A DNA stretch of 64,000 nucleotides from a bacterium (lineage in GTDB: Bacteria > Patescibacteriota > Minisyncoccia > UBA6257 > Colwellbacteraceae): assembly GCA_029548485.1 (NCBI GenBank), contig JAKPNH010000002.1, positions 7,747 to 71,746 on the forward strand, read 5' to 3'. The notes under the pieces were generated by a model. The model saw only the letters and a program-made list of their open reading frames with translations, was not told the origin of the DNA and ran no database searches. Of this stretch, positions 16,545 through 40,760 are shown one piece after another; the first letter of the stretch is position 1; each line of letters begins with the position of its first letter. A program made the translations under genes and the position numbers.

Positions 16545-16593
16545 TTTCAAGTAGGAGCTTCTATTGAAAAAAACAGTCAAATTTACTATCATA

Positions 16594-16623
16594 AAGCCGC
16601 TACCTTTTTGAAGATAGCGGCTT
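16594..16623. terminator. Hairpin terminator after nrdG
   Basis: AAGCCGCTA-12 nt-TAGCGGCTT perfect 9-bp stem. Confidence 0.4.
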
Positions 16624-16636
16624 AAAAATTGAATAT

Positions 16637-17047
16637 TCCGACATAGCTCAACGGTAGAGCGTCTCCCTGTGAACCGTCTTGTCCGATTGCTATAATTCAA
16701 AACAGTGGCGGGCAAGAGAATCTATGCCGACAGGCGCGAAGAATTGATCAGAACCGTCGGCATCACGCAGCCTTCTCGAGTAATCGAGATTGAATAATGG
16801 GGTGAATTCGGGGAAGTCCAATAATAGGATAATCCCGAGCCAATTCCCGCACATTGCGGGACAGGTGTAGAGACTATCTCGAAAGAGAGTAGTTCCCGCA
16901 GTTTTATATAAAACTGCGGAGGACGAAGCGCCTCATTCCGCACTCCGCAAAAACAGCGGAACGGAAATGATATAGTCCACCCTCGGTGGCAACATCGAGA
17001 TAAGTGTAAGGAGCGGGTTCCTGGTTCGAATCCAGGTGTCGGAGCCA
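16637..17047 (+). tRNA. tRNA-Asn(GUU) interrupted by a group I intron in the anticodon loop
   Basis: 5' exon 16637-16670 = TCCGACA-TA-GCTC-AACGGTA-GAGC-G-TCTCC-CTGT. 3' exon 17007-17047 = TAA-GGAGC-GGGTT-CCTGG-TTCGAAT-CCAGG-TGTCGGA-G-CCA. Spliced, the anticodon loop is CUGUUAA, discriminator is G73, and acceptor and T-arm closely resemble bacterial tRNA-Asn. A junction two nt earlier would instead give a UGU (Thr) anticodon. Confidence 0.7.
16671..17006 (+). ncRNA. Group I self-splicing intron (about 336 nt, no ORF)
   Basis: 5' splice after U, last intron nt is G. Core elements resemble the Tetrahymena/IC-type core: 'ATTGCGGGA' (P4-like), 'AGAGACTA' and 'GATATAGTCC' (P7 strands). Confidence 0.65.
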
Positions 17048-17102
17048 GATTGAGATAGCTCAAATATAGCTTCTGCTATAAAGAACTCTTAAGCTTTTTA
17101 CT

Positions 17103-18152
17103 TTATTCATTGAGCCAAAACCATAATTGATTTTTAAGCTCTTGATTCAGAATGTGTGTATCAGCGTGGGATAAAACACCAAGGTATGATTGTAGTGATT
17201 GTTCAACAGTTTTATAAGGAATTCGTCCATCTTTATATTCTTTGACACGCATTTTTAGTTTTTTAAATACTCGGTTTTTAGTCTTGGTGCGAAGCTGAAG
17301 ATGGTATGGCAAAACAACGTAACCGAGAAAATCTATACCCTGCCTTAATTTGCGGATGGAAACTTTATTGGGATGGAGTTCAAGACAAAGCCTTTGTCTA
17401 AGAAATGATTTTATCGGAGAGATTATCTTTTCAAGATAATACGGGTTATCAGCCAAGATTACAAAATCGTCAGTATAGCGAAGATAATGCTTTATTTTAA
17501 GACCATGTTTTATAAATTGGTCGAATTCATTCAGATAAACGTTTGCGAAAAGCTGGGAAGTAAGATTACCAATGGGCACACCCTTCTGCTCAAAGAGGTT
17601 GGAGTATCGGGAGGAGAAACTTTCTATAACTTCCCGCAGCAGCCACATTGTGTCGGGATCCTTAATTTTTTTAGCAAGAATATTAAACAAGATATAGTGG
17701 TCAATCGTTTCAAAGAACTTCTTAATATCGCACTTCAAAGCAAAACATGGCTTTCGTACGTTACCACTTACTTTTCGAGTAAGGTCCCGCAGTGTTATTA
17801 TGCCCTTGTGGGTTCCTTTGTTAATGCGACAAGAAAAGGAATTGGAGATAAACGATTTTTCAAAGAGAGGATTAATAATTGCGAAAATCGCGTGATGCAA
17901 TACGCGATCTCGTACGGCGGCTTTGTGTATATGACGTTGTTTTGGGTCTTGAATCCAAAATGATGTATAGAGACCGTGTTTATAGCGTCTTGCCTTCAGG
18001 TCGCGGTGCAATTGAAAGATATTTTGCTCAAGCTGCCATTCGAATAATTGGACGTCATCCTTGCCCTGTTTATCACTTTTAAATTTCTCCCAGGCAGCAA
18101 AGAGGTTTTCTAATGAAATGATTTGGTCAAAAAGGTTCCTATAAGTTTTCAT
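17103..18152 (-). CDS. Diversity-generating retroelement (DGR)-type reverse transcriptase
   Basis: About 350 aa. N-terminus 'MKTYRNLFDQIISLENLFAAWEKFKSDKQGK'. Motif 4 'IGNLTSQLFANVYLNEFD' is the [I/L]GxxxSQ DGR hallmark. Motif 5 is 'YLRYTDDFVIL'. No maturase or endonuclease domains. Confidence 0.8.
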   Translation of the reverse strand: MKTYRNLFDQIISLENLFAAWEKFKSDKQGKDDVQLFEWQLEQNIFQLHRDLKARRYKHGLYTSFWIQDPKQRHIHKAAVRDRVLHHAIFAIINPLFEKSFISNSFSCRINKGTHKGIITLRDLTRKVSGNVRKPCFALKCDIKKFFETIDHYILFNILAKKIKDPDTMWLLREVIESFSSRYSNLFEQKGVPIGNLTSQLFANVYLNEFDQFIKHGLKIKHYLRYTDDFVILADNPYYLEKIISPIKSFLRQRLCLELHPNKVSIRKLRQGIDFLGYVVLPYHLQLRTKTKNRVFKKLKMRVKEYKDGRIPYKTVEQSLQSYLGVLSHADTHILNQELKNQLWFWLNE

Positions 18153-18157
18153 AATAC

Positions 18158-18508
18158 ATGGAAGAATTAGACATACCAATTTTAAAAAAGGCTTATAATC
18201 TGTATAAAGACTTTTACGGTTTCCGCAATAATGTTCCCAGGCAGGATAGATTTACTATCTGGCAACGGTGTGAAAATATAATTTTGGAGATGCTAGAAAA
18301 TATCATCTACGCAAGTCAACTGTCAAAGTCGGAAAAATTACCAGTTTTACAGAAAGCCAGTCTCGAATTAAGCTTTCTCCGTGTTTTCCTTCGTCTTTGC
18401 AAAGAAACAAAAGTATTAGATACGAGAAAGTACATCTATTTAGAGGAAGCAGTAGACGAAATAGGTAGAATGCTTGGCGGATGGATAAAATCAACTAAAG
18501 ACCATTAA
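18158..18508 (+). CDS. Avd-like four-helix-bundle protein (23S rRNA IVS protein family), DGR accessory
   Basis: 116 aa. Helical pattern 'AYNLYKDFYGF...RQDRFTIWQ...' and C-terminus '...EEAVDEIGRMLGGWIKS', typical of the Avd/IVS family. Divergent from the RT with starts 5 nt apart. Confidence 0.6.
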   Translation: MEELDIPILKKAYNLYKDFYGFRNNVPRQDRFTIWQRCENIILEMLENIIYASQLSKSEKLPVLQKASLELSFLRVFLRLCKETKVLDTRKYIYLEEAVDEIGRMLGGWIKSTKDH

Positions 18509-40467: not shown

Positions 40468-40628
40468 TCTTTGGATTCTCCATGAGCTGTCTTTGGTAAT
40501 CGCCTCCCTGCGGGACGATTAAGGTTCTGTTTCCATTATAGCCCGATTACCGCTTTAGCTGCACAAGTGGATAACTCCGGCGTTTGCCGTATCGGAAAAC
40601 AAAAGGTAAAATGAATCAAACCACATAT

Positions 40629-40760
40629 TTATCAAGAGAACGGCGAGAGTCCTGGCTCTACGACCCGTCGACAACTTGCCGGAGTTCGGCAAAGTGCCAA
40701 ATCCAGCCCTTCGAGGGAAGATAAACTTTAGCCAAAAGCCTTCTCGCGAGGCTGTTTATT
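40629..40760 (+). promoter_or_regulatory. SAM-I (S-box) riboswitch in the metK leader
   Basis: 'TTATCAAGAGAACGGCGAGAGTCCTGGCTC...AGTGCCAAATCCAGCCC...GGGAAGATAAAC' matches S-box conserved blocks. Terminator-like hairpin AGCCT-tctcgcg-AGGCT plus a T-run sits just before the ATG. Confidence 0.7.

Follow-up and report, generated by a model that had tools for sequence, protein, structure and literature searches.

Introduction

Group I introns interrupt the anticodon loops of several bacterial transfer RNA (tRNA) genes, and the four classical cases, in tRNA-Ile(CAU) of Azoarcus, in tRNA-Leu(UAA) of Anabaena and other cyanobacteria, in tRNA-fMet and in tRNA-Arg(CCU), are all filed as subgroup IC3 (Williams, bioRxiv 2020, doi 10.1101/2020.01.27.920355). 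By mapping 5292 intron-split tRNA genes of bacteria, the same preprint expanded the intron classes from 4 to 21; among the entries in its seed alignment (gpI.sto) is an intron of tRNA-Asn, Pam37.Asn.4Ug. Here we describe a member of this class in a Patescibacteriota bacterium of the family Colwellbacteraceae. Within a 64,000-nucleotide (nt) stretch of contig JAKPNH010000002.1, analysed here as a whole and called the window, the anticodon loop of a tRNA-Asn(GUU) gene is very probably interrupted by a group I intron of 336 nt that is self-splicing and lies between nucleotides 35 and 36. Homology with related introns identifies the enlarged loop of its first helix, P1, as what is left of a gene for an HNH homing endonuclease.

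Like the IC3 introns, the window intron is compact, sits in an anticodon loop, uses anticodon-loop nucleotides for a short P1 and carries GNRA loops on helices P2 and P9. It differs from them in its host tRNA, in its insertion site (35/36 rather than 34/35 or 36/37), in its expanded P1 loop, and in the segment that links P7 to the 3' strand of P3 (P3'). In IC3 introns P3' follows P7 directly, whereas the window intron has about 50 extra nt there that form two further helices, P7.1 and P7.2. The Azoarcus intron self-splices in vitro, and the pairing of its 5' exon with the guide has been shown structurally; the window intron is known from sequence alone. Two helices between P7 and P3' also occur in introns of bacterial transfer-messenger RNA (tmRNA), as in Clostridium botulinum (Cbo40.tmRNA in the Williams seed alignment), again within a tRNA-like RNA. 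These introns lie in the T-loop of tmRNA rather than in an anticodon loop, and their core sequences differ from that of the window intron.

Pam37.Asn.4Ug shares with the window intron its host tRNA, its insertion site after the fourth loop nucleotide (CUGU/UAA), a guide (GCAGCC) that follows an expanded P1 loop, the J3/4-P4 motif GUGAAUUC..GGAA, an extra hairpin after P7 and an identical 3' tail, AUAAGUG. Outside the core their sequence similarity is distant, the seed alignment has one hairpin between P7 and P3' where the window has two, and in the preprint P1 of Pam37.Asn.4Ug is aligned as UGUA/UGUA, not with GCAG. The window intron belongs to this catalogued and widespread class, 'Asn.4Ug': it follows the fourth nucleotide of the anticodon loop in the arrangement CUGU/...G/UAA, with U at position -1 and G at the last intron position (omega). 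The preprint describes neither an endonuclease gene nor relics of one.

A bacterial tRNA intron with an endonuclease gene is known from Synechocystis, where the tRNA-fMet intron, as cited in PMC5733544, has a homing-endonuclease open reading frame (ORF), encoding I-SspI, of about 150 codons. In the class of the window intron the gene lies in the P1 loop, and in relatives its ORF reads through the guide and P2; the window itself holds a relic only. To our knowledge, I-SspI is not of the HNH type. In the candidate phyla radiation (CPR), tRNAs often contain group I introns, which cause them to go undetected (Lui et al. 2021), and the tRNAscan-SE 2.0 paper states that the program was not designed for tRNA genes split by group I introns.

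Results

A split tRNA gene and its group I core

The two halves of the tRNA gene lie on the plus strand at 16637-16670 and 17007-17047, separated by 336 nt as an initial annotation of the window had reported, and with the intervening sequence removed they form a 75-nt cloverleaf that ARAGORN accepts. The 5' exon (16637-16670) contributes the 5' acceptor strand, the D-arm, the 5' strand of the anticodon stem and C32 U33 G34 U35, and it begins U1 C2 C3, matching uninterrupted tRNA-Asn genes. The 3' exon (17007-17047) contributes U36 A37 A38, the 3' strand of the anticodon stem, a 5-nt variable loop, the T-arm, the 3' acceptor strand, G73 and an encoded CCA. Given the spliced sequence with its 7-nt loop, ARAGORN names a tRNA-Asn(gtt) of 75 nt. 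The split gene as it stands in the genome was missed by ARAGORN, which the initial annotation had proposed as a check, when run at default settings, and by the Rfam tRNA model; the two halves are found once ARAGORN is allowed to search for introns.

We assign the intervening sequence (16671-17006, plus strand, its last base being omega-G 17006) to the group I introns from its Rfam match, from covariation within its family and from the logic of its junctions. The Rfam model RF00028 (Intron_gpI), against which the initial annotation had suggested searching, matches 16754-16999 on the plus strand over its full length (1-253). The match scores 58.5 bits, where the gathering score is 50, at E = 2.9e-12 over the whole window and 2.5e-14 locally. 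No other Rfam family matched the intron region, even at a permissive threshold.

To gather relatives, we scanned three collections with a composite P7/P7'/T-loop pattern, which has a single match in the window and none in 100 shuffles, and which yielded one viral contig and at least 119 species-representative genomes. Counts of relatives given here are biased by this search pattern, and counts of genomes refer to the matches listed and are lower bounds. With upstream flanks of 450 nt ARAGORN missed members that bear an endonuclease gene; flanks of 1100 nt recovered them, and after this extension 114 of the 124 fetched regions gave a split tRNA call. The arrangement CTGT/...G/TAA, with tRNA-Asn(GUU) split at 35/36, was present in 85 of the 124: the window, three contigs of the same species and at least 81 species-representative genomes. 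The closest relative, locus L073, comes from a Patescibacteria metagenome-assembled genome (MAG; JAKJEF010000014.1) and has identical exons and an intron of 335 nt. It is syntenic with the window, sharing 88% nucleotide identity over the upstream nrdD-nrdG genes and 86% over the tRNA and intron, and we therefore take the window organism to be a close relative of the L073 organism.

Helices read from the window were projected onto an alignment of 40 sequences spanning the guide to the last G. In this alignment 81.8% of helix cells are paired, compared with 67.2% after shuffling, and both partners change in 50 of the 68 helix pairs. Covariation scores 0.374, whereas shuffled sequences reach 0.149 and controls with slid partners at most 0.175. 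Individual support was obtained for P2, P3, P4, P5, outer P6a, P7.1, P8 and P9.

The P2 hairpin (16774-16789), UCUCGA/UCGAGA with a GUAA loop, shows changes on both sides at all six of its pairs. The 5' strand of P3 (16797-16804) pairs with 16929-16936, a 3' strand placed by both the Rfam and the family alignment, with double changes at four of eight pairs and 87.5% of cells paired. P4 (16808-16813/16833-16838), in which 96.7% of cells are paired and four of six pairs covary, encloses P5 (16817-16819/16827-16829) to fill 16808-16838, and is followed at 16839-16866 by P6 (16839-16840/16865-16866) and P6a (16845-16851/16855-16861). The 5' strand of P7, G(A)GACUA at 16870-16876 with a bulged A16871, pairs with UAGUCC at 16973-16978, directly 5' of which stands J8/7, AAUGAUA; by analogy with the Tetrahymena intron, G16872-C16977 is presumably the guanosine-binding pair. 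These are the two strands, AGAGACTA and GATATAGTCC, that the initial annotation had picked out as P7. The ATTGCGGGA that it took for the P4 region has its actual place in the 3' strand of P6a (16855-16861).

Relative to the Rfam consensus, about 50 nt are inserted after P7 and before P3', and this insertion consists of P7.1 (16877-16880/16885-16888, with a GAAA loop; 96% paired, with covariation) and P7.2 (16896-16905/16910-16919), together occupying 16877-16919. P8 (16937-16940/16962-16965; 92% paired, with covariation) and P8a (16944-16948/16956-16960) make up 16937-16965. The P9 hairpin (16982-16999), with a GCAA loop and covariation at six of its seven pairs, precedes the tail AUAAGUG that ends in omega-G.

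P1 joins exon to intron. Its 5' strand (16667-16671) consists of exon nucleotides C32-U35 and the first intron nucleotide, a G, with the 5' splice site after U16670; its 3' strand is the internal guide, C-GCAG-C (16766-16771). The pairs between 16667-16671 and 16766-16770 are C-G, U-A, G-C, U·G and G-C. In the window GCAGC (16767-16771) abuts P2 and lies 96 nt from the splice site, and GCAG(C) stands immediately 5' of P2 in essentially all family members, whatever the length of the P1 loop (L1, 5-324 nt); in short members an intron start of 5-10 nt is followed by GCAGC and then by the P2 hairpin. The pair of intron position +1 with guide position -1, G16671-C16766 in the window, is formed in 49 of 56 members (G-C in 23, A-U in 14, C-G in 5, U-A in 3). 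In intron classes with other hosts, the guide tracks the host tRNA (CAU/GUG, GGCCU/GGGCC, AGCCCU/GGGGCU, GGGAU/GUCCC, CGGAU/GUCCG), and the junction always falls at a U·G pair. Pairings of the exon with an internal guide sequence in hairpin A of the P1 loop, or with J6/7-P7 in the minimum-free-energy fold, were dropped in favor of GCAG after comparison of the relatives.

The expanded P1 loop

The P1 loop of the window (16672-16765) folds into two hairpins, A (16677-16717) and B (16724-16763). The initial annotation had described the intron as having no ORF. It is correct that no intact gene is present, but a 30-codon ORF at 16705-16797 on the plus strand, encoding VAGKRIYADRREELIRTVGITQPSRVIEIE and then a stop codon, is an HNH relic in which the N- and C-terminal ends of the protein are joined without the catalytic core. 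This peptide aligns with both ends of the protein encoded in a related intron, L081 (its first 18 and its last 12 residues), at 77% identity and with a gap of 77 residues. At the nucleotide level, homology with the L081 intron flanks a deletion of about 234 nt in L1 of the window. The CxxC...HH...CxxCH core of HNH proteins is missing from the window, which keeps the 30 codons.

Among the matches listed, Asn-class introns fall into two length groups, 206-403 nt and 519-668 nt, and all 27 of the long introns have an ORF that starts 7-121 nt past the splice site. Lying in L1 of these 27 relatives, the ORFs are intact HNH ORFs of 77-127 amino acids (aa), mostly 100-127 aa (L081, L109, L068, L059, L086, L017, L022 and about 20 others). 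The encoded proteins share the pattern ...KRTYADR.EYL..AV.KRRK...YKGGKC.ICGY.KC..ALEFHH...TRSW...DKC.L.CANCHRE.H.GITQLP... and match PHROG phage HNH endonuclease families (E 5e-29); one of three tested ORFs passes the Pfam cut-off for HNH, with the other two just under it. Upstream of the intact ORFs are TGnTATAAT or TGnTATACT motifs, the same as or like TGCTATAAT, an extended -10-like motif at 16688-16696 (plus strand) in the former endonuclease leader of the window that may have acted as a promoter.

In 25 of the 27 intact copies the ORF runs through the guide GCAG into P2. The guide is usually read as Thr-Gln (ACG CAG), and in three copies, in a different frame, as Arg-Ser; given these two reading frames, the constraint on the RNA seems to dominate over the frame of the ORF at this site. 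L073 shares the left end of the deletion with the window and keeps ten more nucleotides (HREIEAGITQ). Because this end is shared, loss of the endonuclease largely predates the split between the window and L073. We conclude, from homology to the intact copies, that the P1 loop is a remnant HNH homing-endonuclease gene that has lost some 77 codons by deletion, the whole catalytic core among them.

The loop could instead be a functional addition to the intron, for example a binding site or a splicing switch, rather than endonuclease debris. Both the window and L073 retain its two-hairpin fold (z-scores -2.4 and -3.2) although the sequence has changed, and hairpin B, made of both ends of the relic, draws the strands of P1 close together. 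We nonetheless find this origin improbable, given that no Rfam family matches the P1 loop even at a permissive threshold, that copies of L1 outside the window were found solely in loci of the same lineage, that L1 ranges freely in length across the family, and that the HNH gene of the relatives explains the loop sequence codon by codon.

Two further features of this region were considered and set aside. An 8-nt direct repeat, GAACCGUC, at the ends of the P1 loop might have been a target-site duplication; it is not conserved in L073, and the endonuclease relic explains the loop. Two minus-strand ORFs over the intron, at 16722-17063 (113 aa) and 16690-16854 (54 aa), were ruled out as genes: indels of 9, 1 and 1 nt relative to L073 (11 in total) break the frame, and the 113-aa ORF has no Pfam match.

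Proposed function of the intron

From the elements described above we infer catalysis in vivo and an order of steps. In the precursor, C32 U33 G34 U35 would pair with GCAG (16767-16770) to form P1, with U35·G16767 marking the 5' splice site, and the core from P3 to P9 would fold, P7.1 and P7.2 standing as additional hairpins between P7 and P3'. A free guanosine would attack after U16670. G17006 would then enter the same P7 pocket, and the freed exon would attack after G17006, restoring the loop CUGUUAA. By analogy with other tRNA introns, the exons would be held together by the anticodon stem (16663-16666 with 17010-17013) instead of a P10 helix. The HNH endonuclease gene may once have made the intron mobile; with its catalytic core among the deleted codons, the window copy would no longer be able to home and would be inherited vertically.

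Differences from L073 are compensated in P5, in P8a (two compensatory changes) and in P9, and the fold therefore appears to be under selection. The sequence of the window intron is also found unchanged in three other metagenome assemblies.

Several observations weigh against a functional intron. P1 has just four exon pairs and one intron pair to close a loop of 94 nt, and its exon side, CUGU, is fixed by the tRNA and cannot covary inside the class. The pairs of P7 never vary and, having been demanded by the search pattern, are uninformative; P7.2 and P8a lie in variable, badly aligned stretches where the alignment cannot assess them. The anticodon stem has a U27·C43 mismatch (16662/17014) at its outermost position, also present in L073. 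We found no splicing data for the window sequence or for any Asn-class member. Finally, the initial annotation had looked to a covariance-model match and to a P1 and P10 consistent with either junction; the match and P1 are there, and a convincing P10 is not, since the ..CAC 5' of the guide cannot pair with UAA. Most relatives likewise have no convincing P10. In tRNA introns P10 is not strictly required, because the anticodon stem keeps the exons together.

In the extreme case the locus would be a dead relic, its ribozyme no longer splicing and its split gene a pseudogene replaced by another tRNA-Asn elsewhere. The decayed endonuclease gene, the long loop closed by P1 and the U·C mismatch would all fit, and our view is confined to 64 kb of the genome. 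Within those 64 kb we saw no further tRNA-Asn, and genomes of this type usually hold one gene per tRNA. The core helices are all intact, the conserved junction sequences fit the family consensus, the compensatory nature of the differences from L073 at about 86% identity indicates selection on structure, and the identical sequence recurs in the three other assemblies, so that we consider a dead relic highly improbable. As judged from the sequence, the group I intron in tRNA-Asn(GUU) is genuine and probably functional.

Splice junction and tRNA identity

The exon borders, CUGU/GAA at the 5' end and AAGUG/UAA at the 3' end, permit two different excisions of 336 nt in which U precedes the intron and G ends it. 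The initial annotation had noted both that its boundaries follow this U/...G/ rule, which holds for either junction, and that a junction two nt earlier would change the identity of the tRNA. If the exon ends at U16670 and the intron at G17006, the loop becomes CUGUUAA, that of Asn(GUU); if the exon ends at U16668 and the intron at G17004, it becomes CUUGUAA, that of Thr(UGU). The sole wobble pair in the P1 of the window is U35 (U16670)·G16767, and for this reason we place the 5' splice site after U16670 and the last intron base at G17006.

The family points the same way. In all 85 Asn-type regions the intron ends in a G before TAA. Among 59 distinct Asn-type members, 16 (with introns ending ATG, TTG or CTG) can use only the Asn junction, and none can use the shifted junction alone. 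The product of the shifted junction also varies, being UGU in most members, CGU in L066 and AGU in L122.

We also compared the tRNA body, TCC...GGAG-CCA with U1-A72 and discriminator G73, with a small sample of uninterrupted tRNAs from metagenomes that have the same anticodon stem. U1 was present in all six distinct Asn(GUU) genes, in none of 74 Lys(UUU) genes and not in the single Thr(UGU) gene, which has G1 and U73. Five of the six extracted Asn(GUU) sequences end in ...GAG-C, which we read as G73. With the anticodon loop removed, the window body reached scores of 37, 32, 31 and 29 with Asn genes, compared with 7 for the Thr gene. The identity elements of tRNA-Asn include G73 and the anticodon. 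A BLAST search of the spliced tRNA against E. coli genomes gave weak generic matches only (Arg, Val and a phage-plasmid Thr) and was uninformative on the isotype, and an exact-match scan of metagenome contigs turned up no copy of this tRNA free of the intron, whichever of the two anticodons was tried, and hence no pair of loci before and after insertion.

Taken together, the P1 wobble, the 16 Asn-only relatives, the varying product of the shifted junction and the Asn-type body resolve the ambiguity to tRNA-Asn(GUU), with CUGU/UAA joined between nucleotides 35 and 36, in agreement with the CUGUUAA loop, G73 and tRNA-Asn identity first proposed. A tRNA-Thr(UGU) is barely conceivable: the intron search of ARAGORN does call tRNA-Thr(tgt) i(33,336), a shifted junction of this kind is possible in 43 of the 59 members, and the 2020 preprint seed has a 'Thr.2Ug' entry with the same P1 (cuguc/GGCAG), but such a junction would pair U33 with an A in P1 and leave the only G·U at U35, would be unusable by the 16 Asn-only members and exclusive in none, would give a product that is not conserved, and would sit in a body unlike that of the sampled Thr gene. 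The seed entry in question, Pgr210.Thr.2Ug (gpI.sto, doi 10.1101/2020.01.27.920355), which ends ..uuacg, probably belongs, by the wobble rule, to Asn.4Ug, its junction having been placed two nt too early.

Hosts and related intron classes

The initial annotation had supposed that an Asn host would be uncommon. The class was in fact catalogued in 2020, and the intron is carried by the at least 81 species-representative genomes counted above. Among the matches listed, the hosts of Asn-class introns are mostly Patescibacteria/CPR (Saccharibacteria and Parcubacteria-type groups), with further cases in MAGs of Gammaproteobacteria, Elusimicrobia, Omnitrophota and Bdellovibrionales. The same matches include nine introns in tRNA(CAU) at 36/37, eight in Leu(CAA) at 32/33, three in Asp(GUC) at 35/36 and two in Phe(GAA) at 33/34. 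Our parser left seven regions unplaced, and by eye at least L030, L052, L064 and L109 have an Asn-type exon (CUGU with a GCAGC guide).

Some of these other introns deserve mention in their own right. The tRNA-Leu(CAA) introns, apparently at 32/33 (L040, L058, L076, L078, L102, L114 and L116, and also L035 and L048), have gammaproteobacterial hosts, Colwellia, Pseudoalteromonas, Spongiibacter and Enterovibrio, and their guide, GUCCC or GUCCG, covaries with the anticodon stem. The Phe(GAA) introns at 33/34 (L014, L028) and the Asp(GUC) introns at 35/36 (L042, L051, L113) have the same intron architecture, the latter also with a GCAG guide. The tRNA(CAU) introns at 36/37 (L006, L033, L036, L039, L057, L084, L091, L112) use a GUG guide, as in Azoarcus. 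On the viral contig IMGVR_UViG_3300009161_005353 (L005, 5184-5470, minus strand), a tRNA(CAU) is split at 36/37 by a 244-nt group I intron and adjoins an intact tRNA-Leu(UAA).

Surroundings of the tRNA gene

Homology between the window and L073 stops exactly at the 3' end of the tRNA, at 17047; beyond it L073 has a terminator hairpin and then unrelated DNA. In the window a reverse transcriptase ORF with a Pfam RVT_1 match lies at 17103-18179 on the minus strand, converging on the tRNA. The initial annotation had the reverse transcriptase of a diversity-generating retroelement (DGR) begin 56 nt downstream; the distance is right, and it is the stop codon, not the start, that lies there. Divergent from this gene, with overlapping 5' ends, is an Avd gene (18158-18508), whose protein scores 91.7 against the NCBIfam DGR-Avd cut-off of 80. 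From these two matches the genes look like part of a DGR, as first proposed, but we found no pair of template and variable repeats within the 64-kb window. The arrangement suggests an insertion or replacement beside the tRNA gene, covering 17047-18508.

Upstream, the spacer that separates nrdG from the tRNA holds a strong hairpin, AAGCCGCUA...UAGCGGCUU, at 16594-16626 on the plus strand, with no T-run after it, and a promoter-like site (16564-16592) lies just 5' of this hairpin. Elsewhere in the window, a SAM riboswitch (RF00162) at 40626-40727 on the plus strand scores 57.9 bits, over its gathering score.

Discussion

The new finding here is that the P1 loop is a gutted HNH homing-endonuclease gene, and this is the one individual feature of the intron; what is known of how group I introns work is left unchanged. 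We found no description of an HNH gene in the P1 loop in the accessible literature, leaving aside a preprint of 2025 about Patescibacteria tRNA genes that have group I introns. The intact copies raise the possibility, which we put forward with considerable doubt, that Asn-class introns are a still-active, undescribed lineage of mobile tRNA introns whose HNH gene is translated through the guide and P2. If so, translation and splicing of one RNA would need to be coordinated, and the window copy, as a decayed member, would record the stage of the cycle at which the gene is lost.

For annotation, the consequences are practical. Standard tRNA finders overlook the split tRNA-Asn gene or, when introns are allowed, call it tRNA-Thr(UGU), and a tRNA-Asn can therefore seem to be missing from genomes of this group, or an odd additional tRNA-Thr to be present. 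The wobble rule for P1 offers a simple fix of the junction for the whole Asn class.

In this organism, whose genome is reduced, an essential tRNA appears to require a ribozyme in order to mature. For the family, the intact gene in relatives and the gutted gene in the window together give a snapshot of the life cycle of a homing endonuclease.

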